DNA of 49,689 nucleotides, taken from the sequence record NC_105788.1; one strand, 5' to 3'. Numbering within the stretch: position 1 is the stretch's first letter; each line of letters opens with the position of its first letter. The notes under the pieces were generated by a model. The model saw nothing but the letters and a program-made list of their open reading frames with translations. It ran no database searches and had not been told where the DNA came from. Shown in pieces: positions 20,951 through 45,148 of the stretch. The position numbers and the translations under genes were made by a program. Origin of the DNA: a phage.

Positions 20951-20978
20951 AAAGAAAAGGGCATCTCTCGATGCCCTT
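20951..20978 (-). terminator. hairpin plus T-run immediately after J
   Basis: AAGGGCATC-TCTCG-GATGCCCTT followed by TTTCTTTT on minus strand. Confidence 0.45.
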
Positions 20979-20982
20979 GATA

Positions 20983-23900
20983 TTACCATGAGCCAGTCAA
21001 CCTGCCAATCTGAACCCTAAGGCGACCACTCGCATCCCTAACAGATATTGTGGTATTGGTTTGCTTCATTGCACCCTCACCGTCACTTCCGTAGTTTTCA
21101 AATGTACCTCCCTTGTCAAGTCTCCAGCCAGCCTTGTTAACGACATAGTTATTCGATTGAATAACGTTACCAATCATCGCATTCGTGATGAATCCGTTCT
21201 TAATGATGGCACTATTAAGAATCACCTGATTACCTTCAACAACGAAAGGATACTGAGTCTGGCCATTCATTCCAGTCATGATTGCAAATCGTGACGCTTC
21301 GAATAGAATTTGCGCTTTAACCGCCGCGCCGGAACCAATCAGAGACATGGCCATGCCTGCGCTGTATTCCTGACCGTTATATTTCAGACCTAGCTTGACG
21401 CCGTACATTGCCCCAGTCGAATTAGCGTTACTCCATGAGTCTAATTTTTGAGCAAGTGCTGCCTCGTTATCTCCAAGCCTTGCGCTCAGCGTCAAGTCGG
21501 CTTGCGTTCTCGCCTCAGTTTCATTTGCGATAGCCTCGCGGATATCGGTCAAACTTGCCTGAATATCGTCACCAATCTGAGCCTTAAGCTGGTCAATCTC
21601 ACGCGATAAAGCCTCAGTTTCAGTTGCGATAACTTCACGCAGTTCGCTATTGCTTGCGCTAATCTGATCACCAAAACTTGCCCTCAACTGCTCAACTGCT
21701 GTTACTCGCGCCTGAGTCTCATCAGCAATTAGTTGCAGTGATTTGGTGTACTCTGCTTTTCGTTTTCCGTTCTCCTTCTTCATGTAGATCGCGTCTTTGT
21801 CATTAGCTAGTGCGTTCTCAATTGCTGCCTCTGCGTTCGCTGCGTTCTGCGACGCGTTGTCGGTTGCGTTATCAACAAGCCATTCGTAACCCGGCGAGTT
21901 TTCGATATCGACAGAAATCTCTCCGATGATATCGTCAACGTTTGTTGATGCCATGCCCCTGACAAAATCAGTCCACTGAGACACGTTACCGATCCTGTCA
22001 ACTGTCCTTACCCGATACCACACAATATTCCCTCCCGGCATCGGTGAGTGATAATACTCATGCTGCGGGTACGGAATCAAAGAAAGCAAACTTGCGTTAT
22101 CCACTGTTCCATCCGGTGACTGTTGCAACTCTGTATAGGCCGTATCTCCAGAACCATCAGAGAACCCCCATTTTGTACGGATACCAAAAACAACATCATC
22201 CGTAGCTGTAAGGTTAATCGGTCGGCCCGGCTCACCTTGTTTACCCGTCAGCGTCGCAGCTACGATATTTGACCATCCTGAAGTCGTACCGGAACCAGCG
22301 ACAGAGCGAACGCGAACCTGATAGTTGCCAGCGTAAATACCTTCAACGTATACCTCTTTATTTGCCGTCTGCGGTACATTTTGCCAGTTGCCGTTATCCT
22401 TTCGCCACTGGACGTCATAGAAAACTGCGTACGGCACTTTATCCCAGCTAACAATCATCGTTTCTACGCTCATCCCCTGGACGATTCTCGACTCTGAGGA
22501 CACTTGCACGTTTTCCGGTCTAGGGATCTGATCTGGTTCAACGATGCTCGTCGGTCGGTCGTCGATGTTAACTCCGTAATCAATCTCGTCGTACTTGTTA
22601 GGATCGTACTCCACCGCCGTGATTTTGTAGGTAAATTCCTCGTCATCATCGCCCTTATCGATTTTTGTCACGACGTACTGTTGTAGCGCAATGTCTGTGC
22701 GGTCGATAGCGAATACCGTGTTAGGCTTCACAGGAAAGCCAAAGCCAATGTTAACCTCTATAGTCTTACCATCCGCACTAACACTTGAGATTGTGCGCTT
22801 CACGGGCTTTCCGTCGGGCTTATTTACGATAATAAAGTCACCTGCGCGCGCATCCACACGGAACGGCAAGAAAATCTGGCTTCCAGACACTTCAAGCAAG
22901 CGCCCTGATAGGTTCATAGTCAAGTTGCTTGACCAGAAGTTGTCGGCTATTGCCACAACATCACCTATTGTCGGGATCATGCCCTCAAGCCCGGTCGCGA
23001 AGTTTACCGTAGTGCTGCGAAGGTTGGTCTTCAGAATCCATCGCCCTCGTCGGTTAGCCTCGCTTCGACGCGTGCAACCTATCGCTGTAATGCTGGTTAC
23101 GTTATTACCGAACCGCAGAGTCGCCTCACGATCGAATACTGGCTCAACGTCCTGTTGATACATGTTTTGTTCGTCGTCAAACATCACGTTACACGTCGTG
23201 TACATACTCTTTTCGCTTGCGAACGTATAGGAGAAGTCACCATTAACAACGTTGTCGTTAGTGAAGATGTACGCAGGCTCACGCGGTCTGTCGATGATTA
23301 CCGAGATGCTTTCACCATTCCAGAAGCTCATACCACGGAATATTGAGCAAATATCTCGAATCACCTTGTACGCATCAGTCTGTGACTGAATTATCACGTC
23401 GCAAAGGTAGCGAGGCTCCGTACCACCTTTCCCGTCGGGAACCATCTGGTCGCAATATTGCGCCGCCTCATAGAGCGCCCATTTATCGACGGAGATTCCA
23501 AGCTCCTTCTGATCCAGCCCGTAGCGCTGATTAATCATCAGGTCGTATAGAACCCATGCCGGGTTGTTAGTCCACGCCTTCTTGAAAGTCCCATCCCAAT
23601 TGCCGTTGTAGGTTCGTGATTCCGGATCGTAGTTTGATGGAACGTTTACAATCTTCCAGCGCTTACGAATTGAGATCGTAGGTAACTGGTTTGGGAACAT
23701 CTTCGAGTCGAACTCGACGAAAAGAAGACCTGTCAGAGGGTAACGGAATTTGGCATCAATCACCTCGGCATAGCTCTTTACTTGGATCGCATCAACAACG
23801 TTAGAGTCGTTAGAGTCTGGAGTCTTTCGAACAACTCTGAATATTACCTGACTGTTGAAGTTCGGAAGGTTTACGCGACGACTTCGATCGTAACCTGACA

Positions 23901-24402
23901 TTGTTTTGCCTTCGATTACATCGGTGAGCACCGTCTCAAACGAGCCACCATCAACAGCTTGTTGCACCTCGTACTCAACGCGAACGCCGTTTTTATCACC
24001 GTTACTTTCAATTCGCACGCCGCGAGGCATAAACATTTTGATGCGTATTGCCGATAGTGTTTTATTGGTCACTGAGATCGTGTAAGGGTTATCGGTAGTA
24101 ACCTCACGACTTACAGTTACCTCACTGGAACTATCTTCCATGCCCTTGATGTATTCCTGCGTCTGAGTTCCTGGCCTGAACTCAGCCTTTACTCCCTCGA
24201 AGTTAAATGAGCCATCCTCGTTTTGCACCGGGACTGAGTTAAACATCAACTGCTTTAGGCTGAATGTTTCGTCAATTTCACCATCAGATACAGCTAACAG
24301 GATCTTGATTTTGTTGATTGAGATTAGATTGTCTTCCATCTCAACTGGGTTATGAGGCTTCTGTGATCCACCTTTAGATCCACTTATCACTTTTTGAATC
24401 AT
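20983..24402 (-). CDS. central tail fibre / host specificity protein (lambda gpJ-like)
   Basis: N-terminus and internal blocks align by eye with lambda J (SKGG..NL.S...I..L.AVS.G.I.; SNYDPESRTYNGNWDGTFK; WALYEAAQYCDQMVPDGKGGTEPRY); 1139 aa. Confidence 0.9.
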   Translation of the reverse strand: MIQKVISGSKGGSQKPHNPVEMEDNLISINKIKILLAVSDGEIDETFSLKQLMFNSVPVQNEDGSFNFEGVKAEFRPGTQTQEYIKGMEDSSSEVTVSREVTTDNPYTISVTNKTLSAIRIKMFMPRGVRIESNGDKNGVRVEYEVQQAVDGGSFETVLTDVIEGKTMSGYDRSRRVNLPNFNSQVIFRVVRKTPDSNDSNVVDAIQVKSYAEVIDAKFRYPLTGLLFVEFDSKMFPNQLPTISIRKRWKIVNVPSNYDPESRTYNGNWDGTFKKAWTNNPAWVLYDLMINQRYGLDQKELGISVDKWALYEAAQYCDQMVPDGKGGTEPRYLCDVIIQSQTDAYKVIRDICSIFRGMSFWNGESISVIIDRPREPAYIFTNDNVVNGDFSYTFASEKSMYTTCNVMFDDEQNMYQQDVEPVFDREATLRFGNNVTSITAIGCTRRSEANRRGRWILKTNLRSTTVNFATGLEGMIPTIGDVVAIADNFWSSNLTMNLSGRLLEVSGSQIFLPFRVDARAGDFIIVNKPDGKPVKRTISSVSADGKTIEVNIGFGFPVKPNTVFAIDRTDIALQQYVVTKIDKGDDDEEFTYKITAVEYDPNKYDEIDYGVNIDDRPTSIVEPDQIPRPENVQVSSESRIVQGMSVETMIVSWDKVPYAVFYDVQWRKDNGNWQNVPQTANKEVYVEGIYAGNYQVRVRSVAGSGTTSGWSNIVAATLTGKQGEPGRPINLTATDDVVFGIRTKWGFSDGSGDTAYTELQQSPDGTVDNASLLSLIPYPQHEYYHSPMPGGNIVWYRVRTVDRIGNVSQWTDFVRGMASTNVDDIIGEISVDIENSPGYEWLVDNATDNASQNAANAEAAIENALANDKDAIYMKKENGKRKAEYTKSLQLIADETQARVTAVEQLRASFGDQISASNSELREVIATETEALSREIDQLKAQIGDDIQASLTDIREAIANETEARTQADLTLSARLGDNEAALAQKLDSWSNANSTGAMYGVKLGLKYNGQEYSAGMAMSLIGSGAAVKAQILFEASRFAIMTGMNGQTQYPFVVEGNQVILNSAIIKNGFITNAMIGNVIQSNNYVVNKAGWRLDKGGTFENYGSDGEGAMKQTNTTISVRDASGRLRVQIGRLTGSW
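21510..21710 (-). repeat. diverged tandem repeat of about 100 bp (33-aa coiled-coil unit) inside J-like gene
   Basis: GCCTCAGTTTCA(T/G)TTGCGATA recurs at 100-bp period. Confidence 0.5.
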
Positions 24403-24450
24403 GATGTTTACCTTTTTGTGCTATTTATCGGTAGACTCATTATACAGGCG

Positions 24451-24475
24451 AAAAAAAACCCGCGCAAGGCGGGTT
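24451..24475 (-). terminator. intra-operon hairpin plus T8 between gpI-like and gpJ-like genes
   Basis: AACCCGC-CTTGC-GCGGGTT + T8 on minus strand. Confidence 0.5.
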
Positions 24476-24479
24476 AATT

Positions 24480-25079
24480 TTAACTCATATCCTCGGCATA
24501 AGAACCTGCTGAGAAAGTTGCTCCACCTCCGGCGCGATATCCATATGGGACCGGGAGAGGGTATCCCGCCGCCGTCGTATTGACAGCACCGCCGAACGCG
24601 TACGAAGGTTTATTCTTGCTTGATTGAACTTCAAAGTTTGCGCCACCCGGCTGCGGTGAAATCATCTGCATCACGCCGCCCAGCACCATAGCGCCGCCCA
24701 TCATAAACAGAGACGAGGACATTGTGCCCATTAAAGCCAGAGACGCGCCGCCAGTATAGAATGCTGCAACCATTATTGCCGCGCCCAATACAACCTGGAA
24801 TAGACCTCCTGTCTTAGAGCCAGTAGGGATCGGTACGATTCTTATCTCTTTCGCGCACTTGAATTTTTCCTCTTCATGGTGTCCAACGTTAACGCCATCC
24901 ACAAATATCGCAAACTTGCTACGAGATCCTATCTCGCTTTGCATGTATTCTTTAAATCCATCCACCTGACTGGATAGCGCCCGTATGGCTTCCGGGTAAG
25001 AGTCAACAGCGTAACGGTGAAAGACGCCGAAACGCCTCCCAAGTGAACCTGACAATTTAATTACTTTTACATCATTCAT
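24480..25079 (-). CDS. tail assembly protein (lambda gpI-like)
   Basis: shared blocks with lambda I (EAIRAL; IVP..G.K.GG.FQVVLGAA; MVLGGV.QM). Confidence 0.85.
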   Translation of the reverse strand: MNDVKVIKLSGSLGRRFGVFHRYAVDSYPEAIRALSSQVDGFKEYMQSEIGSRSKFAIFVDGVNVGHHEEEKFKCAKEIRIVPIPTGSKTGGLFQVVLGAAIMVAAFYTGGASLALMGTMSSSLFMMGGAMVLGGVMQMISPQPGGANFEVQSSKNKPSYAFGGAVNTTAAGYPLPVPYGYRAGGGATFSAGSYAEDMS

Positions 25080-25810
25080 AATTTAAGATCCTTATGGCGA
25101 ACGATTAAAGCAGTATGATCCTGATACCATCCGGAATAAATATCACGACGAGATAGCTTGCCGAAGGCATGATGCAGGATCTGATTATCTCCCAGGTAAA
25201 TCCCTGCATGGTTCCATACCGGAACGTTTTGCCCTATCTGCATGATTACCATATCACCGAATGACGGATTATTCTGATCTGGAATCTCAACGAAGCCATC
25301 CTGCTTGTAATAATCCTGATAGAGATTAAGTCCGTGCTCAGGCTTCCACCATTCAAAATTCAATCGGCGATCACGCAACTCTACGCCATGCTCTTTATGC
25401 CACGCCATTACAAGGCCGTAACAGTCGAATGAACCTAATGACCACGGGCGACCAATCAGAGGCAATTTCTCAGGCTTCACAAAACGCATATCTCCTTCCG
25501 GTACGCTAACAATAATCCAGGTAACTTCCATCTCATTACACATGCACGTATCGTGAGCGCTGGGAAGAGTTGTAGCTCCGTCCCCGGTGTGGCTGTGGAC
25601 AATTGCGATCGTGGTTGAGTCTGCGTCGTCCTCAATACATGCGTATTGCACTGCGTCCATCATGAAGTGATTCTCAGGATCGCGATGTACATTATCAACG
25701 CGATGGTATTTTTGCACTCGGCCCTTTTGGGTGACTACCCCGCAGCATTCGCGTGGGTATTCTTCTTGAGCGTGAGTCATAATTTCAAGTTTAATTTTTG
25801 CACTAATCAT
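25076..25810 (-). CDS. tail assembly protein (lambda gpK-like; MPN/JAMM plus NlpC/P60)
   Basis: ECCGVV and HSHTGDG (JAMM-like) followed by Cys/His peptidase-like region; start at internal ATG with AGAGGA RBS. Confidence 0.75.
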   Translation of the reverse strand: MISAKIKLEIMTHAQEEYPRECCGVVTQKGRVQKYHRVDNVHRDPENHFMMDAVQYACIEDDADSTTIAIVHSHTGDGATTLPSAHDTCMCNEMEVTWIIVSVPEGDMRFVKPEKLPLIGRPWSLGSFDCYGLVMAWHKEHGVELRDRRLNFEWWKPEHGLNLYQDYYKQDGFVEIPDQNNPSFGDMVIMQIGQNVPVWNHAGIYLGDNQILHHAFGKLSRRDIYSGWYQDHTALIVRHKDLKL

Positions 25811-26589
25811 TGATTTTTCCTCTGTAGTGAAGCGACAGCGCAACCACCAAAATCCAATTCATTGTTTGCACCGAACCGCAGGCGGCAGGCCGTTACCGTG
25901 CCCGGGCAAAAGTCCAGTGAAGGATCATCTACTGGATTATTGTCTTTATCAAAGTAACCGTTTTGCCCGTTATATCCGCAGCCCTTCCCGGTTTTATACC
26001 ATCCACGCTGCGCCCAATAGCATACGCTTTGCGTGAGTCGAGACGGAATCATGATGCCGTCCATATCGTAAGGTGATGTGAGATCGAACCGCGCAACGCT
26101 TTTATCAACATAGTTCGGACGCTCGATATAGTATACCAGTTTGCGGTAAGCTCCATCAGCGATTGAGCCATCGGAGTTAATAAGCTCACGCTGAGTTATC
26201 CAGATAGTCACCTTAGCTTGCATTAGTCCGTTATATGCACGGATCATCGCAGATACGCGACTATCAATGTTTGCCACCGTTAATTGTGGTTTTGTTGCCT
26301 TTCCTGAACTGTCAAACGAGATCCCGGATATGCCGAACGGTCGCGCCCCGTATTTCTCGCCACGGAATGTAATTTCCTTCGGCGGTAGCGTTCCAGTTTG
26401 CTGGGCCTGCATGATTTCTTCTGGAGTGTACTGGATATTCTCACCGTGGAATCTGTACACCTGAGCGCCGAACTTACTACCATCAACTTCGATGAGAGTG
26501 ATTATCTCTCCCGGATATAGTGATTGTAGGCAGTTGTGAAACAGGCTTCTTCCGCTTTCTTCATCATAAAGTTTTTTGTTTTCGCTCAT
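25807..26589 (-). CDS. minor tail protein (lambda gpL-like)
   Basis: position between M-like and K-like genes; start at internal ATG with AGAGGA RBS. Confidence 0.65.
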   Translation of the reverse strand: MSENKKLYDEESGRSLFHNCLQSLYPGEIITLIEVDGSKFGAQVYRFHGENIQYTPEEIMQAQQTGTLPPKEITFRGEKYGARPFGISGISFDSSGKATKPQLTVANIDSRVSAMIRAYNGLMQAKVTIWITQRELINSDGSIADGAYRKLVYYIERPNYVDKSVARFDLTSPYDMDGIMIPSRLTQSVCYWAQRGWYKTGKGCGYNGQNGYFDKDNNPVDDPSLDFCPGTVTACRLRFGANNELDFGGCAVASLQRKNQ

Positions 26590-26630
26590 TGATTTTTCCT
26601 CTTGTTTACCTGCAACCATTCTACAGCTAC

Positions 26631-26652
26631 AAAAAAACCCGCGCAAGGCGGG
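26631..26652 (-). terminator. intra-operon hairpin plus T7 between gpM-like and gpL-like genes
   Basis: CCCGC-CTTGC-GCGGG + T7; near-identical to the hairpin at 24451-24475. Confidence 0.5.
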
Positions 26653-26668
26653 CTTTTGTTATGTGGCG

Positions 26669-27022
26669 TTAATCCATAGATGTAAACTGCTCCATAAACG
26701 TGACGTTAATCTCCATCACGTCGCGTGATACTGGCTTCGCTCCCAAACTGTTAGGCTTTACTACCCATATCCCGACCTTACCGTCCGGCGGCGTCCATGC
26801 GAACGGCTTAATGCGGTGAGAGTCACAGAAGTCGTAAACAGACATAAAATCTTCCCCAGCATAGACAACTGAATACTCGCGTCGAGTAGTGTTAAATCCA
26901 GACGACGCAAGCTGCATGTATCCGTTACCAAACTGGATGGAGCGGTCATTATTGGTAGTGGTAAGGGAGCCACCGCCCCCTTGAACCTGCGTACACCAAC
27001 CGAAAGTGTCAAGTGTCGCCAT
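26669..27022 (-). CDS. minor tail protein (lambda gpM-like)
   Basis: 117 aa; size, position and W..PP motif resemble lambda M. Confidence 0.65.
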   Translation of the reverse strand: MATLDTFGWCTQVQGGGGSLTTTNNDRSIQFGNGYMQLASSGFNTTRREYSVVYAGEDFMSVYDFCDSHRIKPFAWTPPDGKVGIWVVKPNSLGAKPVSRDVMEINVTFMEQFTSMD

Positions 27023-27024
27023 TA

Positions 27025-29898: not shown

Positions 29899-29914
29899 AT
29901 AACCCCCTATATAC

Positions 29915-29936
29915 GAAAAAACCGCCAAACGGCGGC
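29915..29936 (-). terminator. intra-operon hairpin plus T6 between G-T and tape measure genes
   Basis: CCGCC-GTTT-GGCGG + T6. Confidence 0.45.
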
Positions 29937-30571
29937 TTAGTTGTTTTGCTTAGCAATCATTTCAAGCGCTTTCGCTTCCATGATCCTAACGTCCTGCAAT
30001 GCCAGTTCTTCATCTTCTATTTTATAGATTTTGAACAACATAGGCAAAACATTATAGTCAAGGCCATAAGCTCCAGCGCCTGAACTTCTCCACTGAGTGA
30101 GCATTGACGTAAAAACATTCCACGCCTTCACCATTTCAGCATCGCCGATTATCGTTTCCGGTTCCTCATCTTCATAGTCAGAAAGGCTGAGGCCAACCGA
30201 TCTTAATTGCTCTTCTGTCGGCGGTTTCTGATATAACAGATAAACCGCCCTTTTTAGTTTTTTGCGCGGTGTCCGGCGAGCGCCTTGATGTAAGTTGCCG
30301 TCAGATTGTACGCTGCGGAAGGATAATACTGTACCAGTTTACGCGTATTCTCTTCGTTAAATTCTTCTTCCAGATTCCAGCCTGACGCGATCTTAGTAAT
30401 GAAATCGCTATCATTCATTTCGCCCTGCTTCGCATACATATCTTGCACTTCTTTACTGGAAAGGTGGCGCACTGTAAAAATAATAGTCGCATCCTCACCG
30501 TTTGGCATGGTGAACGTAACCGGAAGTTTGAAGTCTGGAAGCTGGCCCAACACGAAATTGAATTTAGCCAT
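29937..30571 (-). CDS. tail assembly chaperone G-T fusion produced by -1 programmed ribosomal frameshift
   Basis: -1 frame is open from the slippery site to stop at 29937; arrangement identical to lambda G/GT. Confidence 0.65.
30254..30571 (-). CDS. tail assembly chaperone (lambda gpG-like)
   Basis: 105 aa between major tail and tape measure genes; ends ...RAKN-stop with slippery heptamer in last codons; ACCAATCAGGAG RBS. Confidence 0.75.
   Translation of the reverse strand: MAKFNFVLGQLPDFKLPVTFTMPNGEDATIIFTVRHLSSKEVQDMYAKQGEMNDSDFITKIASGWNLEEEFNEENTRKLVQYYPSAAYNLTATYIKALAGHRAKN
30257..30263 (-). other. -1 frameshift slippery heptamer A_AAA_AAC
   Basis: zero-frame codons GCA AAA AAC TAA; canonical X_XXY_YYZ site 1 codon before G stop. 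Confidence 0.7.
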
Positions 30572-30592
30572 AATGTTTCTCCTGATTGGTTG

Positions 30593-30612
30593 ATAGCACT
30601 TTTTGTTAAAAT
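30593..30612. promoter_or_regulatory. conserved box (ATAGCACTTTTTGTTAAAAT, inverted relative to gene) directly abutting the gpG RBS
   Basis: box copy inside late operon. Confidence 0.5.
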
Positions 30613-30684
30613 TTAATCGAATAAAGTTGATAAGATGATTTTACAGAAATGAATAAGGGGGCGCAAGCCCCCTATGGATGGTAT

Positions 30685-31353: not shown

Positions 31354-31355
31354 AA

Positions 31356-32961: not shown

Positions 32962-33005
32962 AACTTACCCCCATAAAAAAAGGCGCTACATGAGCGCCTT
33001 GATGA

Positions 33006-33306: not shown

Positions 33307-33335
33307 ATAAAAAAGGGACTAACTAAGTTAGCCCC
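33307..33335 (-). terminator. hairpin plus T6 immediately after major capsid gene
   Basis: AGGGGCTAAC-TTA-GTTAGTCCCT + T6 on minus strand. Confidence 0.55.
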
Positions 33336-33342
33336 TATAATA

Positions 33343-34302
33343 TTACACGCCAGTAATTAAGACAATAGTCATCGGGCGATAAATTGTAAGACCAGTACAC
33401 TTAGAGGTGCAAGGCACTTTGAAGTGCAAGTCTTTCGGCTGCGCTGGCAGCATGTTAAATGCTTCCGGGATCTCGATGGACATGTTCATCGGATTCTTTT
33501 CGTACACCAGCACACCTTTAGTGCCTGCGCCGTCGATATCCTCAAGCTCTGCGATAGAGTCGATTTCGATACCGGAGTTCTGAGACTTGAAATAGTCCAG
33601 ATAAGACATAGTAGTCTCAGGCATACGAATCGCCAAAACCTTACGCATGGAAGGCGGAATCAGGATGTTGGTTGCTCGGTGTTGGCCCCGAGTAATCGTC
33701 TCGATGGTTTCGATCGCTTGAGTTAGCTCAGCTTCCGCAGTTTCCGGCTTCATAGTAGATGCATCAATCCACTTACCGGAGGTAATTTTAGTGATGTTCG
33801 GATGGTTAAACACGGACACAATCTTGTGCGGTGCGGAACCTTTGAACACCAGGCGGTTAACAAGCTGATCATGCGCCAACTGGCACGCGCTCGCCTTACG
33901 GGTTGACAGTGGGCGACCAGTTGCCTGACCTGCTTTGATTTCGTCGATTGAGATCAGATACGCATTACCCAAACGGAACACCTTACCAAATTCAGAAGTA
34001 CCAAGCGCATCAACCAGAGGCAGGTCATCGGTATAGTCAGCGATAATCTGAGCAGTACCAACCTTATCAAAAGTCATGTACTCAAACGTCTTGTCGGTCG
34101 GAGAGAGTTCGGTTGTAACCGGGAATACTCGTAGTGCTGAGCCTACCGGATAGTCTTCTTCGTAAGACTGGCTTTTGATGCGGTGTAGTTCCTGAGCGGT
34201 CCAGATACCCATCGTTGCGGCTGCATCCTGTTTTACGCCAGCCTGGATCAGATACATTTCAACATTACTTTTATCTGCTTCATCAAATTTTTTAGTAGTC
34301 AT
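33343..34302 (-). CDS. major capsid protein
   Basis: 319 aa; lambda-like gene order (protease - decoration - capsid); GGAGAAG RBS; flanked by terminator hairpins. Confidence 0.7.
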   Translation of the reverse strand: MTTKKFDEADKSNVEMYLIQAGVKQDAAATMGIWTAQELHRIKSQSYEEDYPVGSALRVFPVTTELSPTDKTFEYMTFDKVGTAQIIADYTDDLPLVDALGTSEFGKVFRLGNAYLISIDEIKAGQATGRPLSTRKASACQLAHDQLVNRLVFKGSAPHKIVSVFNHPNITKITSGKWIDASTMKPETAEAELTQAIETIETITRGQHRATNILIPPSMRKVLAIRMPETTMSYLDYFKSQNSGIEIDSIAELEDIDGAGTKGVLVYEKNPMNMSIEIPEAFNMLPAQPKDLHFKVPCTSKCTGLTIYRPMTIVLITGV

Positions 34303-34323
34303 GATTACTTCTCCGTAGTTAAT

Positions 34324-34350
34324 AAAAAAGCCGTGATTATGTTCACGGCT
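34324..34350 (-). terminator. hairpin plus T6 upstream of major capsid gene
   Basis: AGCCGTGA-ACATAA-TCACGGCT + T6. Confidence 0.5.
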
Positions 34351-34356
34351 TCAATA

Positions 34357-34376
34357 ATAGCACTTTTTGTTAAAGC
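34357..34376. promoter_or_regulatory. conserved box (ATAGCACTTTTTGTTAAAGC, inverted relative to local genes)
   Basis: box copy between decoration-like gene and capsid gene. Confidence 0.5.
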
Positions 34377-34393
34377 GTCAAAGTGTTTTTATG

Positions 34394-35161: not shown

Positions 35162-35175
35162 AATGATTTCTCCAT

Positions 35176-35205
35176 AAAAAAAGGACTATCCAAAAGGATA
35201 GTCCT
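35176..35205 (-). terminator. hairpin plus T7 between the two decoration-like genes
   Basis: AGGACTATCC-TTTT-GGATAGTCCT + T7. Confidence 0.55.
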
Positions 35206-35220
35206 TATATTAAATGCTAA

Positions 35221-35700: not shown

Positions 35701-35711
35701 GATATTTCTCC

Positions 35712-36824: not shown

Positions 36825-36826
36825 TT

Positions 36827-38861: not shown

Positions 38862-38872
38862 GTTTCCTCCAA

Positions 38873-38899
38873 TAAAAAGGGCCGTCAATTGACAGCCCT
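38873..38899 (-). terminator. hairpin plus T5 between TerL and portal genes
   Basis: near-palindrome GGGC(T/C)GTCAATTGAC(G/A)GCCC + T5. Confidence 0.4.
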
Positions 38900-38915
38900 G
38901 ATTATATCTCATTTA

Positions 38916-40484: not shown

Positions 40485-40523
40485 GATTAAGTCTCCCATG
40501 TGGGCGCTCGCGCGCCCGTAACG

Positions 40524-41048
40524 TTAAAGCATGTCAAGAATGCTATTTACTGCCTCTTTCATTGCATCCTCAGTAGTGGCGACTACTGTCGATGCGGAAG
40601 CTGACGAGTTTTCGATATTGATTGAGGCTGGCTTATCGATTCCGAGATCCTTACCGATAAAGGAGGCATTAATAACACCGTTGGCGGCAAGCTGGAATTT
40701 TTGCTCGTTGATTACCGATTCCACAAACTCCATAACCTCACTGTATTCTTCCTCTCGCTTCCACTTAATGATTGCGGCCTCGCTTGCACCGATGAATAGT
40801 CGGTATCCGGTCCAGGTGAAGACTCGCGGCTTATGAACTAGCGATTCATAAACGCCACCCTGAAAGCTGGCTGATTCTGACGCCTTGATTGCGTTGTCCT
40901 CAGCCCATTCGAAATACTTAACTGACAGATCGAATAGTTGCTCAGGCGTCATTGCCCGGTTTTTAGCAAGAACAGTGCCGAACTTTTTCTTGTATAGCTC
41001 TTTGAAATTACCTCCATGGACTACTGGGGCGTTCTTAGGTTCACTCAT
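40524..41048 (-). CDS. terminase small subunit
   Basis: position immediately upstream of TerL; start at internal ATG with AAGAGGA RBS. Confidence 0.55.
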   Translation of the reverse strand: MSEPKNAPVVHGGNFKELYKKKFGTVLAKNRAMTPEQLFDLSVKYFEWAEDNAIKASESASFQGGVYESLVHKPRVFTWTGYRLFIGASEAAIIKWKREEEYSEVMEFVESVINEQKFQLAANGVINASFIGKDLGIDKPASINIENSSASASTVVATTEDAMKEAVNSILDML

Positions 41049-41063
41049 AAATCCATCCTCTTT

Positions 41064-41089
41064 GTTTAACATTTAGTGCTATTTTACCA
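41064..41089 (-). promoter_or_regulatory. box copy (ATAGCACTAAATGTTAAAC) overlapping an extended -10 (TGGTAAAAT) upstream of TerS
   Basis: read directly on minus strand. Confidence 0.45.
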
Positions 41090-41101
41090 TATTGCAGGCA
41101 T

Positions 41102-41123
41102 AAAAAAACCCGCCGAAGCGGGT
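41102..41123 (-). terminator. intrinsic terminator (CCCGC-TTCG-GCGGG + T7) at end of minus-strand early arm
   Basis: GC hairpin plus T7. Confidence 0.65.
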
Positions 41124-41132
41124 TAGTATTTA

Positions 41133-41360
41133 TCACGATAATCGTCGTTTAATGCCTTTAGGGTGGGTCTGAGCTTTAGAGTAGCAGTGAGCAAGGTCGC
41201 CAGTCATTTCCCATTGATCCTTCTTAGGCGAGTAGGTCAGCCATACACCAGTTTTATCCTTCGCGTCCATCGCAATTGCTGCCGCCACAAGTGCGAAGCC
41301 AGCAAACAAACCAGCACCAAAAATAATGACACCAGCGATAATCAATAAAAAAATTGTCAT
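41133..41360 (-). CDS. small membrane protein (75 aa)
   Basis: N-terminal hydrophobic helix IFLLIIAGVIIFGAGLFAGFALVAAAIA; AAGGAG RBS. Confidence 0.5.
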   Translation of the reverse strand: MTIFLLIIAGVIIFGAGLFAGFALVAAAIAMDAKDKTGVWLTYSPKKDQWEMTGDLAHCYSKAQTHPKGIKRRLS

Positions 41361-41361
41361 G

Positions 41362-41547
41362 TTAAATCTCCTTGATTAATTCAATATTTATTTTGTGAGT
41401 GTCAAGGTTAGCGCCGGAAAGTTTTTTTGCTTTCGTGATGGCTTCATCCTGACTGGTTGCTGATAATTCAGTTTCGAAAGATTGCTTGCACGACTGGCAA
41501 AACATTCCCATCTTTCGAATAATTAATTTAACCTTGAATCGCTTCAT
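41362..41547 (-). CDS. hypothetical protein (61 aa)
   Basis: ORF track. Confidence 0.4.
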   Translation of the reverse strand: MKRFKVKLIIRKMGMFCQSCKQSFETELSATSQDEAITKAKKLSGANLDTHKINIELIKEI

Positions 41548-41689
41548 CTTCCTGGGCCTTAATCATAACGCCAGCAATGCGACCAATTACAGCCTCGCCG
41601 GGATTTAATCGCTTTTTATAACGAGTTGTTTTACCGTTGCGAGTTACTTTAATTTCAATTTTGACTGTTTCATCTTTAGTGTTTTGCAT
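41528..41689 (-). CDS. hypothetical small protein (53 aa, below ORF-track cutoff)
   Basis: manual translation MQNTKDETVKIEIKVTRNGK...; AAGAGGA RBS; coordinates approximate. Confidence 0.35.
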   Translation of the reverse strand: MQNTKDETVKIEIKVTRNGKTTRYKKRLNPGEAVIGRIAGVMIKAQEDEAIQG

Positions 41690-41853
41690 TATGCAATCCT
41701 CTTGAATTTTTGCCGCTTACGGGTCTGCGGAGTTGCTTAACCACTATGCAACCGAGCTTTTTAGCTGGAAGTGTGAGAATCGTCTCACGCGTTGCGCTTA
41801 GTTGCGCCTCGTCTGTCTACGGGATTAATACTATCACCGCTCAGGGATGTAGG

Positions 41854-42057
41854 TCAATCATTAATTTCGAATTGACCATTAGTCACATCCTGCGGGTAAT
41901 CAATCTCATGCATGTTCCCATCGTCGCCGTAAACATACACAAGCCTCTTTGCTTTACTGACTTTTTCAACGTCATACATGCACCCCGCTGAGAAGGCATC
42001 ACCATTTCGTGAAGTGACGCATAGCACCTGATCGCCTTTCTTCGGTAAGTTAGCCAT
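41854..42057 (-). CDS. hypothetical protein (67 aa)
   Basis: ORF track; AAGGGGA RBS. Confidence 0.45.
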   Translation of the reverse strand: MANLPKKGDQVLCVTSRNGDAFSAGCMYDVEKVSKAKRLVYVYGDDGNMHEIDYPQDVTNGQFEIND

Positions 42058-42287
42058 TATTCGTAATCCCCTTCTTTGTTCCCTACGCGCCCAGCAATGT
42101 ACCCAGCAGTCCAGACAAATTTGTATCGGTCGATGAGTAGCTCGACCTTTTTGTGGTGAGTCGAGATTACGTCAATCATAATCTTGTCGTTTTTCCGATC
42201 TTCTTTCTTCATTCCGCTGACGAATTTATTTAATTCTTTCGCGGCACGCTTTACTACGTTCCATTCTGCTTCACTTAAACCGAACAT
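42057..42287 (-). CDS. hypothetical protein (76 aa)
   Basis: ORF track; GGGAGAGG RBS. Confidence 0.45.
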   Translation of the reverse strand: MFGLSEAEWNVVKRAAKELNKFVSGMKKEDRKNDKIMIDVISTHHKKVELLIDRYKFVWTAGYIAGRVGNKEGDYE

Positions 42288-42631
42288 TATTTACCTCTCC
42301 CAAATGAAAAATTAACACCTAAAACCTGATTGCAAACCGACTCCATGTATCGCAACTGATATTGAGCAACCTTTGAAGGACTTAATTCATCGGAAAATAA
42401 ATCCTCAACATTGATTTCTTTTTTATGCTTGCGCTTCCATGCCTTGATGATATTTGGCAGGATTCGCTCACTTTTCCAGGCTGCAAACTCCGCTTGGTTG
42501 GTTGATGTTGGGGTAAGTTGTCTTTCGATCTGGTTAAGAATCTCAGCAGTAGCGCCTTTTACGTGAAGCTGTTCGCCGATAGTGTCGAGGATTTCACGCG
42601 CTTGTTTATCTGACAGGTTAATCGTGATCAT
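42287..42631 (-). CDS. hypothetical protein (114 aa)
   Basis: ORF track; AAGGAG RBS. Confidence 0.5.
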   Translation of the reverse strand: MITINLSDKQAREILDTIGEQLHVKGATAEILNQIERQLTPTSTNQAEFAAWKSERILPNIIKAWKRKHKKEINVEDLFSDELSPSKVAQYQLRYMESVCNQVLGVNFSFGRGK

Positions 42632-42837
42632 GCTTCTTCTCCTTCATCTTCGATCGGGGTAAAAAACTGAGTATTCACTGCCGGGTTATAATAAACCCCA
42701 TCGTCATAGTCGCTTTCTTTCACTTCAATGAAAACGTCGCAACCGTCATGCATGAAGTCACCATTATCAGTATGAACCAGTTCGAATACTTCAGAAGTTT
42801 TAGTGCAAGTGAAAAACTTATCAGTTGATACCATCAT
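42628..42837 (-). CDS. hypothetical protein (69 aa)
   Basis: ORF track; preceded by box cassette. Confidence 0.45.
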   Translation of the reverse strand: MMVSTDKFFTCTKTSEVFELVHTDNGDFMHDGCDVFIEVKESDYDDGVYYNPAVNTQFFTPIEDEGEEA

Positions 42838-42893
42838 TTCGATTTTCTCTCTTCGTTGTCGATGAGGTAACTATATCAAGTCACCCCACCGAC

Positions 42894-42913
42894 GTTTTAG
42901 CAATTCGTGCTAT
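42894..42913 (-). promoter_or_regulatory. conserved box (minus strand ATAGCACGAATTGCTAAAAC)
   Basis: box copy overlapping TAG stop of kinase gene. Confidence 0.6.
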
Positions 42914-43482
42914 TTGTTGATGAACGTGGCGGCTATGTGCTGAGCGGTAATTTCTGGATGACCTTCGACAGAAAAGAAGTCACATTCCTGATAACCGTTA
43001 ACCCCGATCATGTCGTCAAGATAGATATAGTCTCGGCTGTCGTTATCAAAGCTGCAACCGTTGCGATGGATTCGACATAGCTTAACCTGGATATCACCTT
43101 CAATCATCTGCAAGATCTCATCTTTGAATCCACCGTCAGTAAATACCGAAAGGGAGTGCGACTCTTTCACCTTGCTTTCCGCTCGCATACCGAAGAAGCG
43201 ATTTCCGAACTGCGGCTTGATGACCTCCTCGCTAATCCAGATCATAAACTGGCGCGGGCTTTTACCGTTCAGGATTGATGCTGGCTCTTCTTTATAGCGA
43301 CGGTCCTCATACAAGAACATGAAATACTCAAAATTAGTCTCACCCAGGATTGCTCGGGCAATCTCAAACATTGGAGCTTTAAAGCTGCGTAGAGCTACAT
43401 GATCGTAAGTGTCAGCCAGGATGCACCCTATAGTGTCTTTTCCCGCGCCAGGCGCACCGTTTAAAATGATAGCTGTTTTCAT
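42910..43482 (-). CDS. deoxynucleoside monophosphate kinase (T4 Dnk-like)
   Basis: Walker A LNGAPGAGKDT and LNGKSP block that also occur in T4 Dnk (recalled, not searched). Confidence 0.6.
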   Translation of the reverse strand: MKTAIILNGAPGAGKDTIGCILADTYDHVALRSFKAPMFEIARAILGETNFEYFMFLYEDRRYKEEPASILNGKSPRQFMIWISEEVIKPQFGNRFFGMRAESKVKESHSLSVFTDGGFKDEILQMIEGDIQVKLCRIHRNGCSFDNDSRDYIYLDDMIGVNGYQECDFFSVEGHPEITAQHIAATFINK

Positions 43483-43483
43483 G

Positions 43484-43594
43484 TCAGTATCTCCCTAAAA
43501 ATAATTTCGCCACATTGATGATGGTGGAGTTTATGATTAACAGAATGATAACTGTTAGTACCGGATGTGCTGCAATAAATTCGTATAGGTTCAC
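43484..43594 (-). CDS. tiny hydrophobic peptide (36 aa, GTG start, below ORF-track cutoff)
   Basis: GTGA overlap with phosphatase stop, AAGGAG RBS; predicted single TM helix; coordinates approximate. Confidence 0.3.
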   Translation of the reverse strand: MNLYEFIAAHPVLTVIILLIINSTIINVAKLFLGRY

Positions 43595-44202
43595 TTCAAT
43601 AACTCCTTGCACTTAATGCAAATTTTCTCACCAAATGGCGGTAGCGGCTCAGATGGTTCATGATTGCAAACCTCATCTACCCCGTGAGATTTTAAATGAT
43701 CGTGGACTTTATCGCCATAGTCAACTACAGCATAAGTGGTTATTCCAAGCGACCGGAATAATGGAATAATTTGCGGTGAGTCATCCCATGCCGCCAGAAT
43801 GTTCTCAATGCCGATCGCGCGCACCGCCTCTTCTTTCATTACTGTGTCTTTCCGGTTATCGGTGTGTGGTCGCATAATCAGGTAATCATATCGAGCGCCG
43901 TGATGCTTGAGCCATAACTCAGATGCGTAACGCACCTCATCACTTCGCCCGGTTAAAATGATCACATGATACCCAGCGGCAAACATAGAGTTCATCACTT
44001 CAATCGTACTCTTGATTGGGTTATCAAATATTGCCGCTCGGTTAAACTCTGACCAGCTTTCAGTTAGGTGCAAATCCTTTGTCGGTAGCAGGTGAAGTCT
44101 ACCTGATCCGTCACTAAGTGTCCCGTCAAAGTCAAAGATTGCTACGCGGCGAGTACCGAGAAACAGGTTGATTGTCTGGCCCCAAATGGTAATTTTATCC
44201 AT
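43591..44202 (-). CDS. HAD-superfamily phosphatase
   Basis: N-terminal DFDGTLS (DxDxT) motif; C-terminal Cys cluster; CAATCAGAGGA RBS. Confidence 0.6.
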   Translation of the reverse strand: MDKITIWGQTINLFLGTRRVAIFDFDGTLSDGSGRLHLLPTKDLHLTESWSEFNRAAIFDNPIKSTIEVMNSMFAAGYHVIILTGRSDEVRYASELWLKHHGARYDYLIMRPHTDNRKDTVMKEEAVRAIGIENILAAWDDSPQIIPLFRSLGITTYAVVDYGDKVHDHLKSHGVDEVCNHEPSEPLPPFGEKICIKCKELLK

Positions 44203-44266
44203 GATTTATTCCTCTGATTGGTTGCTTAACTCAACGAAGGGCATTCTAACAAATGCCCTTGAGCAA

Positions 44267-44286
44267 GTTTTAGCAATTCGTGCTAT
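44267..44286 (-). promoter_or_regulatory. conserved box (minus strand ATAGCACGAATTGCTAAAAC) followed by hairpin AAGGGCA..TGCCCTT
   Basis: box copy after TAA stop of upstream gene. Confidence 0.6.
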
Positions 44287-44732
44287 TACCAACAAGTGAT
44301 CTCATAGTTGGCCCAGTCATCAAAGATACCCTGGCTGAAGTCGCCACCGTAGTTTTCCATAAGTTCATCGATCAGGAAGTAGCAGGATTCGCCGTTACGA
44401 TAGAAGTATGAATCTGCAACGTTACGCGCCCAGCGTCCGGCATCTTTCTTGCTCATCTTCCAGTATTTCATTGCAATTTTCTTGAATGCTCGCACGACAC
44501 GCTTGCGGATCTTGATATTCTTGTACACCGAATTGCAGCCGTAGGCCATATATTCGTTATTTCCAAGATTCTGCATGATGTACGGATTAACCTCTTTTGA
44601 GGTAATCATCAGATCGCCATCGCCGCGACGCGCATCATAAATACTTGCTGTCATGTAGTGACCTTTGAACATTCCGATGCCGTGCAGGGTGTATTCATCG
44701 TTAGGCGTTTCAATGCAAATCAAATGTTTCAT
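44286..44732 (-). CDS. hypothetical protein (about 148 aa)
   Basis: internal ATG with GAGGGA RBS. Confidence 0.45.
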   Translation of the reverse strand: MKHLICIETPNDEYTLHGIGMFKGHYMTASIYDARRGDGDLMITSKEVNPYIMQNLGNNEYMAYGCNSVYKNIKIRKRVVRAFKKIAMKYWKMSKKDAGRWARNVADSYFYRNGESCYFLIDELMENYGGDFSQGIFDDWANYEITCW

Positions 44733-44786
44733 GAGTGTTCCCTCGTTTTTTGGTGTAGGGGAATCATAGCGCATTCCCCTTGATAG

Positions 44787-44806
44787 GTTTTAGCAATTCG
44801 TGCTAT
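44787..44806 (-). promoter_or_regulatory. conserved box (minus strand ATAGCACGAATTGCTAAAAC) followed by hairpin AGGGGAATG..CATTCCCCT
   Basis: box encodes C-terminal TNSTNC-stop of upstream gene. Confidence 0.6.
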
Positions 44807-45008
44807 TCGTTTTAATAGTGATGCAAAAATAATTTTTTAAGCACGTCACCACGCGCGCTGAATCGACTTGTGGGAGCCTTAAAATTTCGTGGACCAATTG
44901 CACTGCCGACACCTCAGATTTGTAGTAGTGTGCGATTCTTGAGGTATTTGGGCGCATTCCTTCCACTGCGTCACGCGCTGCATCTTCTGTTGTCATGATA
45001 GTAGCCAT
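44790..45008 (-). CDS. hypothetical protein (72 aa)
   Basis: ORF track. Confidence 0.45.
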   Translation of the reverse strand: MATIMTTEDAARDAVEGMRPNTSRIAHYYKSEVSAVQLVHEILRLPQVDSARVVTCLKNYFCITIKTNSTNC

Positions 45009-45112
45009 AAAACACCCTTAAGAGATAATGTCAGGACCAGGAGGCAGAATAGCAACTCCTGAAATGATGGCGGCTCGTTATTCCAGTTGGAAAAGTCTGG
45101 CATAGTGTTTTC

Positions 45113-45148
45113 TCCAAAAGAAAGGGGAACCGTTCAGAGCCGATTCCC
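45113..45148 (-). terminator. hairpin plus T-run after 45157..45795 gene
   Basis: GGGGAATCGG..CCGTTCCCC followed by TTTCTTTT on minus strand. Confidence 0.45.

Follow-up and report, generated by a model that had tools for sequence, protein, structure and literature searches.

The closest described counterpart of the late genes studied here is found in coliphage T1, whose late 'transcriptons' are flanked by terminators and have RpoD promoters within them (Roberts et al. 2004, PMID 14972552, as far as recounted in PMC11447400). For T1-like phages, 18–21 predicted terminators have been reported (PMC4070988), and it is documented that phages can use leaky terminators to balance gene expression (PMC9163698). 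Terminators have also been mapped just downstream of promoters, within 5'UTRs, in Pseudomonas phages (PMC10914365), and bacterial promoter-coupled terminators have been characterized experimentally (Fletcher, Grainger et al., bioRxiv 2026, 10.64898/2026.08.19.745784).

The window analyzed here, the complete 49,689 nucleotides of record NC_105788.1, comes from Escherichia phage CLB_P3, a Tunavirus of the same genus as T1, ~95% identical to it. An earlier note had listed 11 hairpins with T-tracts among the late genes, and proposed that graded attenuation within one operon, or RNA processing, sets structural-protein stoichiometry. In the present analysis, the late genes resemble a series of individual transcription units rather than a single operon with stepwise attenuation.

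Results

Terminator-like elements in the late cluster

All 11 listed hairpins are present on the minus strand where they had been placed (Table 1), with T5–T8 and predicted ΔG values from −10.4 to −17.1 kcal/mol across the sites; V/G is, as had been noted, a weak element, with the poor T-tract TATTCATTTC. A twelfth element, orf46/connector, was absent from that list. A strict scan of the window returned 11 sites on the minus strand, compared with 0.24 ± 0.51 expected from dinucleotide shuffles (n = 100), and two on the plus strand, each of them the mirror image of a symmetric hairpin. M/L is missing from the scanner output only because its stem runs into its own T-tract. The strict-scan sites are all co-oriented with the late genes, and the T-tracts always lie 3' of the stem in the direction of transcription. 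The hairpin observation is real but already known: the curated T1 record (GenBank AY216660) labels 10 of the 12 homologous sites 'terminator, rho-independent', including those of 45157/orf67, orf55/TerS, deco/IgDeco, orf46/connector, G-T/tape measure and J/orf32, and leaves TerL/portal and V/G unannotated. Before the capsid gene it annotates, besides one of these terminators, a promoter, the sole one that it lists in the late region.

Table 1. Hairpin elements of the CLB_P3 late cluster, with promoter-like hexamers and proposed class (nt, spacer length or distance to the stem; SD, as listed for each site).
Junction	Extent	Strand	Stem-loop	Hairpin and following sequence	Promoter-like hexamers	Proposed class
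45157/orf67 (after 45157 gene)	45124..45149	-	45149-45124	GGGGAATCG-loop-CGGTTCCCC, TTTCTTTT, SD GGAG; ΔG −15.5	TTTAAT (45155-45150), adjoining stem	A, probable
orf55/TerS (before TerS)	41089..41124	-	41124-41107	AACCCGC-TTCG-GCGGGTT + T7	TTCGGC (41117-41112), 17 nt, CAATAT (41094-41089)	B, weak
TerL/portal	38878..38906	-	38899-38878	TTTTTATT, SD GGAGG	TATAAT (38906-38901), 1 nt	A
deco/IgDeco	35181..35212	-	35206-35181	11-bp hairpin, T7, SD GGAG	TAATAT (35212-35207), adjoining stem	A
IgDeco/MCP	34327..34381	-	34352-34327	T6	TTGACG-16-(TGc)TATTAT (34381-34354)	A
MCP/orf46	33314..33365	-	33336-33314	T6, SD GGAG	TTGTCT-17-TATTAT (33365-33337)	A
orf46/connector	32980..33000	-	33000-32980	AAGGCGCT-loop-AGCGCCTT + T7, then SD		C
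V/G	30638..30673	-	30673-30656	AGGGGGC-TTGC-GCCCCCT, degraded T-tract	TTGCGC (30666-30661), 17 nt, TAAAAT (30643-30638)	B
G-T/tape measure	29919..29938	-	29938-29919	AAGCCGCC-GTTT-GGCGGTTT over stop codon, TTTCG, SD		C
M/L	26618..26654	-	26654-26632	GCCCGC-CTTGC-GCGGGT + T7	TTGCGC (26646-26641), 17 nt, TAGAAT (26623-26618)	B
I/J	24439..24475	-	24475-24457	AACCCGC-CTTGC-GCGGGTT + T8	TTGCGC (24467-24462), 17 nt, TATAAT (24444-24439)	B
J/orf32 (after J)	20957..20985	-	20978-20957	TTTTCTTTT, SD GGAGG	TAATAT (20985-20980), 1 nt	A, probable

To say that the elements stand between almost every gene was an overstatement. The stretch from orf55 to orf31 has 24 junctions, 12 of them gaps of at least 35 nt and 12 overlaps or gaps of at most 11 nt; elements fill 11 of the 12 larger gaps. 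The remaining large gap, TerS/TerL, holds a GC hairpin (40517-40502) without a T-tract, as do gaps in the early region of the same genome. No hairpin was found at overlapping or abutting junctions (≤11 nt), either in the window or across all related loci. Similarly, the next ribosome-binding site follows directly at seven of the 12 elements, but not, as had been claimed, at all of them: at orf55/TerS, IgDeco/MCP, V/G, M/L and I/J the stem-to-ATG distance is 24–84 nt, and promoter-like hexamers lie beside or overlap the hairpin. The two elements described as nearly identical (24451-24475 and 26631-26652) have an exact 21-mer in common, CCCGCCTTGCGCGGGTTTTTT; the paralogous orf55/TerS element is a third, related copy upstream of TerS.

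Conservation of the hairpins

The elements were compared across 63 + 54 loci (~120) with capsid identities of 50–100%, relatives that are phylogenetically non-independent, such that the counts below exaggerate how many observations are independent. The hairpins stay at their junctions down to 50% capsid identity while the stem sequences turn over, and a T-tract right after the stem is kept at nearly all junctions despite these changes. Compensatory pairs number 4 of 6 (MCP/orf46) and 3 of 9, and the counts of interior G·T versus A·C are 94:22 for the sense strand and 47:97 for the antisense strand. The compensatory changes and the sense-strand G·U bias point to selection on RNA structure, supporting the assignment of the elements as intrinsic-terminator-like RNA structures under selection. 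Judged by these features, the sites are probably genuine terminators of transcription that have been conserved. What was observed directly is that the elements are present, enriched, co-oriented, conserved in position and structurally covarying, and that the promoter-like hexamers described below are conserved in occurrence and spacing.

Promoter-like hexamers at the hairpins

Promoter-like hexamers overlap nine or ten of the 12 elements, with family-wide conservation for seven, and fall into two geometries. In class B (V/G, M/L, I/J and, weakly, orf55/TerS), the loop and 3' arm would supply the −35 (TTGCGC), and the T-tract would lie in a spacer of exactly 17 nt before the −10, placing the new transcript start ~17–18 bp past the termination point. 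A −35 within the hairpin, as part of the pattern TTGnnn-N16-18-TAnnnT, is found in 36/42 (V/G), 26/39 (M/L) and 35/44 (I/J) distinct sequences, and the same geometry recurs with different sequences in Webervirus-like and Rtp-like clades. The I/J promoter signal is present in 42 of 52 loci, its −10 being kept even in the 57% clade, and an ATAGCAC box lies over the SD in its 5'UTR (24406-24424). At V/G the relatives have a clean T6–T7 tract, and an inverted ATAGCAC box is found further downstream (30593-30611). In one relative (L040), an extra ORF is inserted directly after the M/L element. The orf55/TerS site is a degenerate member with a poor −35 and −10; a strict TTG −35 occurs in 0/14 relatives, and its promoter part is a weak candidate.

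In class A (TerL/portal, deco/IgDeco, IgDeco/MCP and MCP/orf46, with J/orf32 and 45157/orf67 as probable members), the stem follows a −10 hexamer at a distance of 0–2 nt, and transcription would begin within the 5' arm. TAnnnT adjoins the stem in 35/36, 21/21, 26/37 and 36/36 distinct relatives at the first four sites, respectively, against a background rate of 0.146. The last two are assigned by their geometry in the window only; J/orf32 lies outside the 10-kb flanks covered for the relatives. The 45157/orf67 hexamer has no A at position 2. The capsid-gene promoter (IgDeco/MCP) is near-consensus and family-wide (60/61 loci), has TGn in 24/27, and holds an inverted ATAGCAC box in its spacer (34357-34375). 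Many relatives of the 75% clade have a weak T-tract after the capsid-promoter hairpin, which may mainly be an RNA-end structure there; in the 55–58% clades the terminator comes first and then the promoter. The MCP/orf46 signal is found at all 49 of 49 loci, with constant spacing across two different capsid C-terminal contexts, and most relatives have a TTG 17 nt upstream of the deco/IgDeco hexamer. The TerL/portal hexamer has neither a canonical −35 nor TGn. Its hairpin and T-tract are present in 14/14 and 35/35 loci with at least 70% capsid identity and absent from the 55–58% capsid-identity clades; the CLB_P3 annotation of the portal ORF (ATG 38912, no SD) includes the hairpin, and a T1-type portal start (ATG 38861, GGAGG upstream) leaves it intergenic. 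RNAs that begin 7–8 nt past the class A hexamers would retain structures of only 0 to −5 kcal/mol, the complete hairpin having −13 to −17; a start only 6 nt past would leave a hairpin of −4 to −8 kcal/mol at three sites.

Only orf46/connector and G-T/tape measure appear to be plain terminators (class C), past which read-through would be needed. The former is conserved as hairpin plus T-tract in 15/15 and 30/34 loci, with either promoter pattern in 0/37 relatives; the latter hairpin occurs in 28/28 Webervirus-like and 4/4 Rtp-like loci, with a promoter pattern in 0/34 relatives.

Discussion

We consider it rather probable that the 12 elements are intrinsic terminators, most of them fused to sigma70-type promoters, and that the output of each block is the sum of its own promoter and leakage. 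The elements would be Rho-independent terminators, read by the host RNA polymerase and kept because their RNA hairpin and U-tract are under selection. They would partition the late cluster into about eleven blocks, the genes of each being translationally coupled. Because of the fused promoters, in two conserved geometries, most of them would not be simple attenuators. RNA arriving from upstream at a class A site would contain the full hairpin and be terminated; RNA from the site's own promoter, starting inside the 5' arm, would not form the complete hairpin and would escape. Expression of each block would then reflect the strength of its promoter plus leakage past the preceding terminator, and the hairpins would also provide a protective 3' end for each upstream mRNA. 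The literature searched yielded neither maps of transcript 5' or 3' ends nor RNA-seq or reporter measurements for T1-like phages or Drexlerviridae, so every functional step, including termination and initiation at the sites in vivo and their efficiencies, is predicted.

The earlier proposal of one long transcript, in which partial termination at each hairpin alone sets stoichiometry and internal promoters have no function, retains its terminator-like elements under selection, and a precedent in the sequential weak-terminator read-through of phage LUZ7, also cited for T7 (PMC9163698). Seven hairpins lead straight into the next SD, where a separate downstream promoter would not fit, and terminators stand after high-copy genes (decoration, capsid, major tail protein V) and before low-copy ones (connectors, tape measure, J). 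The single operon and the monotonic order are not borne out, however: low-copy TerS/TerL come first, one to three terminators precede the scaffold, decoration and capsid genes, whose products are high-copy, and after passage through 12 successive terminators of moderate strength hardly any transcript would reach J and the genes past it. The conserved sigma70-type hexamers at exact spacing at most hairpins (at least eight junctions), together with the retention of the capsid promoter, make a single operon with cumulative attenuation improbable, and we regard this model as unlikely. In a gated alternative, the terminators would block unmodified host polymerase early, and a later phage factor, for which the conserved ATAGCAC box may be the loading site, would confer lambda Q-like resistance. 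Many strong terminators do stand between essential genes, one of them immediately after the capsid promoter, whose spacer is filled by this conserved 19-nt box. Lambda Q binds pR' at the position that matches the box in this spacer. Many early proteins lack an assigned function, and time-dependent read-through is known in other phages (PMC9163698). Nevertheless, neither Q, N nor other antiterminator families were found among ~20 early proteins, none is present in the HHpred-curated T1 record, and an Rfam search found no nut- or put-like RNAs. The box has ~30 copies, mostly at early promoters in a fixed upstream position, as expected of a general promoter element more than of a loading site specific to late genes. 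We judge antitermination gating quite unlikely.

AU-rich single-stranded stretches beside stem-loops are typical RNase E contexts, and the hairpins could instead be mainly stability or processing elements that shield the mRNA pieces left by endonucleolytic cleavage, with termination incidental and the AU-rich hexamers before the stems acting as RNase E sites. The GC hairpins without T-tracts at TerS/TerL and in early-region gaps, and the weak T-tract of many capsid-promoter hairpins, agree with this; but a pure stabilizer does not need the T-tract that persists while stems change, and the hexamers retain promoter-specific features (A at position 2, T at position 6, TTG at exactly 16–17 nt). 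Overall we judge this explanation distinctly improbable. RNase III-type processing is also unlikely, since the stems are perfect and, at 7–11 bp, too short. It is hardly credible that the elements are inverted repeats that arose by chance in AT-rich spacers, or features acting at the level of DNA such as cruciforms and recombination or module boundaries, even though they lie at gene-block boundaries and one relative carries an extra ORF after M/L. The shuffle enrichment and the sense-strand-specific G·T asymmetry effectively refute that reading, and the uniformly 3' T-tracts and compensatory stem changes also speak against it.

The favored reading, terminators fused to promoters, has a parallel for class B in the bacterial promoter-coupled terminators (10.64898/2026.08.19.745784). 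There, as in class B, stem-loop DNA forms the −35, the −10 comes after the T-tract, and termination and start fall within 35 bp, between tandem, functionally related genes; the separation has a mode of ~10 bp, compared with the 17–18 bp predicted here, and was characterized experimentally, whereas phage class B is known here from sequence. That work mentions no phages and does not describe class A, with its start inside the stem, and neither the overlap geometries nor their family-wide conservation were found in the T1 record or the searched literature. The T7 RNase III sites are likewise stem-loops between the late genes of a virulent coliphage, but RNase III substrates are ~20 bp or longer, often with internal loops, unlike the short, perfect stems and U-tracts of CLB_P3. 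Lambda pR'-qut-tR' also places a strong promoter and then a terminator upstream of structural genes, with a conserved DNA element between −35 and −10; in CLB_P3, by contrast, no Q-like protein was found among the early proteins, the box is mainly an early-promoter element, and the terminators recur through the cluster with promoters of their own. T7 (Tφ, after gene 10) and LUZ7 (PMC9163698) share terminators inside or between structural blocks, one of them directly after the major capsid gene, such that downstream genes need read-through. However, T7 relies on a phage-encoded polymerase and has a single main terminator for its late genes, whereas CLB_P3 has 12 host-type terminators in series, most of them overlapped by promoter-like sequences.

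Hairpins occupy the intergenic gaps of the late region

The window matches Escherichia phage CLB_P3 (OL770108; Tunavirus, Drexlerviridae) at 100% identity over the queried 24.3 kb and is ~95% identical to coliphage T1. Its structural and late genes occupy the minus strand from ~41.1 kb (TerS) to ~20.0 kb, with small early or middle genes grouped upstream (49.3–41.1 kb), and CLB_P3's own record lists no regulatory features. One small early protein matches the Pfam family PF25180, 'Phage antiviral trigger protein Gp54' (E 1.8e-35), and HTH proteins are encoded at 3576-3992, 5642-6049 and 13402-13926. Folding of every minus-strand intergenic gap, combined with two independent scanners, confirmed each of the 11 hairpin sites that an earlier note on this DNA had listed; a twelfth element lies between orf46 and the connector gene. 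All twelve are on the coding strand, in intergenic gaps of 38–113 nt, with stems of 7–11 bp (5–6 GC pairs), loops of 3–8 nt and hairpin ΔG values of −10.4 to −17.1 kcal/mol. A T5–T8 tract directly follows the stem on its 3' side at 11 of the 12; the exception is the V/G junction, previously called weak, where the tract is indeed degraded in the T1 clade (TATTCATTTC) yet reads T6–T7 in relatives. A strict scan returned 11 sites on the minus strand and 2 on the plus strand (dinucleotide shuffles, 0.24 ± 0.51), both plus-strand matches being mirror images of symmetric minus-strand hairpins. The two elements described as nearly identical, I/J and M/L, have an exact 21-mer in common, and a third paralogous copy stands before TerS.

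Between orf55 and orf31 there are 24 junctions, 12 of which have gaps of at least 35 nt. Eleven of these 12 carry a hairpin and T-tract, and the remaining one, TerS/TerL, carries a GC hairpin that lacks a T-tract, has a GNRA-type loop (GCGA) and is specific to the T1 clade, while none of the 12 overlapping or abutting junctions has a hairpin. As the elements are confined to gaps, the claim that they lie between almost every gene should read every real intergenic gap; they mark off about eleven blocks whose genes are coupled in translation. That each is followed directly by the next ribosome-binding site holds at 7 of the 12 elements but not at the other 5.

Two start codons bear on these assignments. 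In the CLB_P3 record the portal gene begins at 38912, without an SD, and TerS at 41072, versus T1-type starts at ATG 38861 (SD GGAGG) and 41048 (with a good SD), respectively; both recorded starts appear to be too far upstream. With the T1-type starts the hairpin (portal) or the ATAGCAC box (TerS) falls outside the open reading frame, and the TerL/portal hairpin is intergenic only if the portal gene begins at its T1-type start. Elsewhere, a terminator-like hairpin (AGCGGC-loop-GCCGCT, then TTTCTAT) inside the U-like gene, just past its start, is probably due to chance, and strong symmetric (bidirectional) terminators stand at boundaries between convergent genes and where the late cluster ends.

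Coordinates of the features described in the text
Feature	Position	Strand	Remark
Twelfth element, orf46/connector	33000-32980	-	
Hairpin in U-like gene	31737-31719	-	
Symmetric terminators	6459-6480, 16889-16910, 19928-19943		
Early protein matching PF25180	48110-48304	-	
ATAGCAC box copies (examples)	733, 1198, 1615, 2980, 3496, 3996, 6158	+	
ATAGCAC box copies (examples)	7940, 9928, 10951, 13461, 42913, 44286, 44806, 46353, 47640, 48379	-	
Late box, capsid promoter	34357-34375	+	inverted, within 16-nt spacer
Late box, V/G	30593-30611	+	inverted, ~27 nt past -10, ~22 nt before G start codon
Late box, J	24406-24424	-	forward, 5'UTR over SD
Late box, TerS	41064-41082	-	forward, 5'UTR over SD
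GC hairpin without T-tract, TerS/TerL	40517-40502	-	
GC hairpin without T-tract, dNK/orf61	42894-42860	-	
GC hairpin without T-tract, orf65/PNK	44262-44239	-	
GC hairpin without T-tract, orf66/orf65	44780-44758	-	
CATCGA(A/C)AACGA (examples)	769-781, 1234-1246, 6196-6210, 42868-42856, 47595-47583		
Class B -10 hexamer, V/G			TAAAAT
Class B -10 hexamer, M/L			TAGAAT
Class B -10 hexamer, I/J			TATAAT

The elements are conserved and under selection as RNA

Orthologous junctions were located by tblastn in 63 loci around the capsid gene (capsid identity 57–100%) and in 54 further loci from a distant-clade seed (Webervirus-like, ~55%; Rtp-like, ~50%), using only the best HSP for deco/IgDeco orthologs since the two decoration genes are paralogous. 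At TerL/portal the hairpin and T-tract are present in 14/14 and 35/35 loci at ≥70% identity. The corresponding counts are 15/15, 27/36 and 10/10 upstream of the capsid gene (MCP), 15/15 and 32/34 at MCP/orf46, 15/15 and 30/34 at orf46/connector, 15/15, 28/33 and 10/10 at V/G, 14/15, 33/33 and 9/10 at G-T/TMP (before the tape measure gene), 14/15, 31/31 and 9/9 at M/L, and 15/15, 28/29 and 8/8 at I/J. In the Webervirus-like clade the elements precede the capsid gene in 27/29 and are present at V/G (28/28), G-T/TMP (28/28), M/L (28/28) and I/J (25/25). In the mapped loci, overlapping junctions of relatives never carry a hairpin with a T-tract.

Between clades the stem sequences are wholly exchanged and the hairpin and T-tract retained. 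Compensatory double changes were found by RNAalifold at 4/6 and 3/9 pairs, and among interior pairs the ratio of G.T to A.C is 94:22 on the sense and 47:97 on the antisense strand. This G.T excess on the sense strand is a signature of structure in the late RNA, and because the strand asymmetry speaks against a DNA-level cruciform that reading was rejected. A search of the whole window against Rfam at the gathering threshold gave no matching family. The GC stem-loop, the U-rich tract, the co-oriented intergenic position and selection on RNA structure are those of an intrinsic terminator; the elements are real, highly non-random and conserved, and are predicted to be Rho-independent terminators. 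In one relative (L040) an insertion of ~600 nt with an extra ORF sits immediately behind the M/L terminator, which suggests that mobile genes use such junctions as points of insertion.

Most late hairpins are fused to putative promoter hexamers

Conserved hexamers of predicted promoters are fused to most of the late hairpins, in two layouts. In class A a −10-like hexamer abuts the stem: TAnnnT stands 0–2 nt before it at TerL/portal (35/36 distinct sequences), deco/IgDeco (21/21), IgDeco/MCP (26/37) and MCP/orf46 (36/36), versus a background of 0.146. The TerL/portal hexamer is TATAAT in 25/35, and neither a canonical −35 nor a TGn was found with it. At the capsid promoter, TTGACG or TTGCAC stands at 16 nt, with a TGn in 24/27; at MCP/orf46 a TTG spaced by exactly 17 nt persists in two clades that differ in capsid C-terminal coding sequence, and deco/IgDeco has one at 17 nt in most sequences. 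The same geometry is seen, for the window only, at J/orf32 (TAATAT) and 45157/orf67 (TTTAAT), both of which are outside the relatives' 10-kb flanks. A start 7–8 nt past the class A hexamer, as predicted, would lie inside the 5' arm, and the resulting RNAs would retain a hairpin of 0 to −5 kcal/mol, compared with −13 to −17 kcal/mol for the full hairpin.

In class B, which comprises V/G, M/L, I/J and, weakly, orf55/TerS, the −35 lies within the hairpin: TTGCGC occupies the loop and 3' arm and is followed by a spacer of exactly 17 nt, containing the T-tract and a CTG, and then by the −10 hexamer. The pattern recurs in distinct relatives at V/G (36/42), M/L (26/39) and I/J (35/44), and distant clades realize it in new sequences (TTGTGC-16-CATAAT, TTTACG-17-TATGAT and TAGTGC-17-TAGAAT). 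Neither promoter pattern occurs at orf46/connector (0/37) or G-T/TMP (0/34), the plain terminators of class C.

A repeated box at early and late promoters

A 19-nt box, ATAGCACnnnTTGnTAAAA, occurs in 30 copies in the window versus ~2 expected; the same repeat has been reported, with function unknown, in phage TLS (PMC11447400). In the early region, 17 copies precede a −10-like hexamer (such as TATAGT or CATAAT, in about half the cases with a TGn) by exactly 19 nt, a fixed spacing that we have not seen described in the literature. The box would thus reach from about −50 to −32, with its centre near −41, and with no canonical −35 it resembles a class II activator site. As a −35 element it was rejected: 19 nt from box to −10, or 22 nt from the inner TTGnTA, is too long for sigma70, so we read it as an upstream factor site. 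The box recurs at four late positions, and six loci of the 75–77% clade (L018, L019, L037, L038, L039 and L048) carry it in forward orientation where the −35 of the TerL/portal TATAAT would be, a hint of a single box-binding factor whose effects vary with position.

Three GC hairpins without a T-tract also occur in the early region, standing either between box and −10 or beside the −10, so that only RNA reading through from further upstream would contain the complete hairpin. A further motif, CATCGA(A/C)AACGA, is conserved at ~9 early promoters, starting ~7 nt past the −10, the predicted mRNA 5' end, often in a small hairpin.

A proposed chain of transcription units

The earlier note read the hairpins as graded attenuation or RNA processing within one late operon. 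This reading is partly right: the structures it relied on are real and conserved, but gene order and the promoter hexamers favour separate units, and RNase III intercistronic sites of the T7 type, which need a duplex of ~20 bp or more, were rejected because the stems are only 7–11 bp. We favour a predicted chain of transcription units that are insulated and in part overlap. Such a chain suits the gene order better than cumulative attenuation does, because the order opens with the low-copy terminase genes and the best promoter belongs to the capsid gene, with the highest copy need. Each hairpin would end the upstream RNA and supply it with a stable 3' end, and at most junctions transcription would start anew at once; at orf46/connector and G-T/TMP, downstream expression would rely on read-through. 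Alternatively, a phage factor could make the polymerase terminator-resistant. Early proteins of unknown function leave room for a novel antitermination factor, but this model lacks both a protein and an RNA signal: Pfam and PHROG searches of ~20 early proteins gave no antiterminator family (Q, N or similar), none is annotated in the curated T1 record, and we consider it quite unlikely.

Within the chain of units, we raise tentatively the possibility that T1-family phages systematically use 'self-transparent' terminator–promoter fusions, with a −10 abutting the stem at 4–6 junctions and the terminator serving as −35 and spacer at 3–4 more. Where the −10 abuts the stem, polymerases arriving from upstream would be stopped, whereas RNAs initiated there would start inside the stem and escape termination. 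One ATAGCAC-box factor might tune the late units according to box position.

Comparison with known systems

Terminator-like hairpins throughout the T1-type late region are already known from the T1 GenBank record and the literature: in the curated record (AY216660), 10 homologous sites carry the label 'terminator, rho-independent' and the capsid gene is preceded by an annotated promoter, and other T1-like genome papers predict 18–21 terminators (PMC4070988). By itself, the hairpin finding adds little beyond extending the T1 annotation to CLB_P3. The added value is comparative, namely family-wide structural selection on hairpins of which most are fused to promoter hexamers, and the predicted promoter coupling is the sole part with some novelty. 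Our literature searches for transcriptomics, Term-seq or antitermination in T1, Tunavirus, Drexlerviridae and Webervirus gave no relevant result, and no transcript mapping for any family member was found. If the units were mapped experimentally, Drexlerviridae, which are common both as therapeutic phages and as contaminants, would have their first map of transcription units; the work would also supply a naturally occurring case of promoter-coupled terminators in a phage and compact terminator/promoter parts for use in engineering.

Polymerase recycling to nearby promoters after termination (PMC6978380), leaky terminators that balance phage expression (PMC9163698) and phage terminators just downstream of promoters, within 5'UTRs (PMC10914365), have all been documented. 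Promoter-coupled terminators have been mapped in A. baumannii, E. coli (540 pairs) and B. subtilis; in these the stem-loop DNA serves as the −35 and the T-tract precedes the −10, termination lies at most 35 bp upstream of a same-strand start (mode ~10 bp), and an active coupled promoter raises termination of upstream transcription (10.64898/2026.08.19.745784). Phages go unmentioned in that work, and in the limited literature accessible to us the class A geometry was not found described anywhere. Class B (V/G, M/L and I/J) shares the layout of the bacterial elements, with orf55/TerS matching weakly, and like them lies between tandem related genes (tail genes on one strand); its predicted termination-to-start distance of 17–18 bp, taken from sequence geometry and not from mapped ends, is within the 35-bp window and off the bacterial mode of ~10 bp. 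If true, self-transparent fusions would mean that bacterial promoter–terminator coupling reaches phages and is joined there by a second geometry, in which transcription starts within the hairpin.
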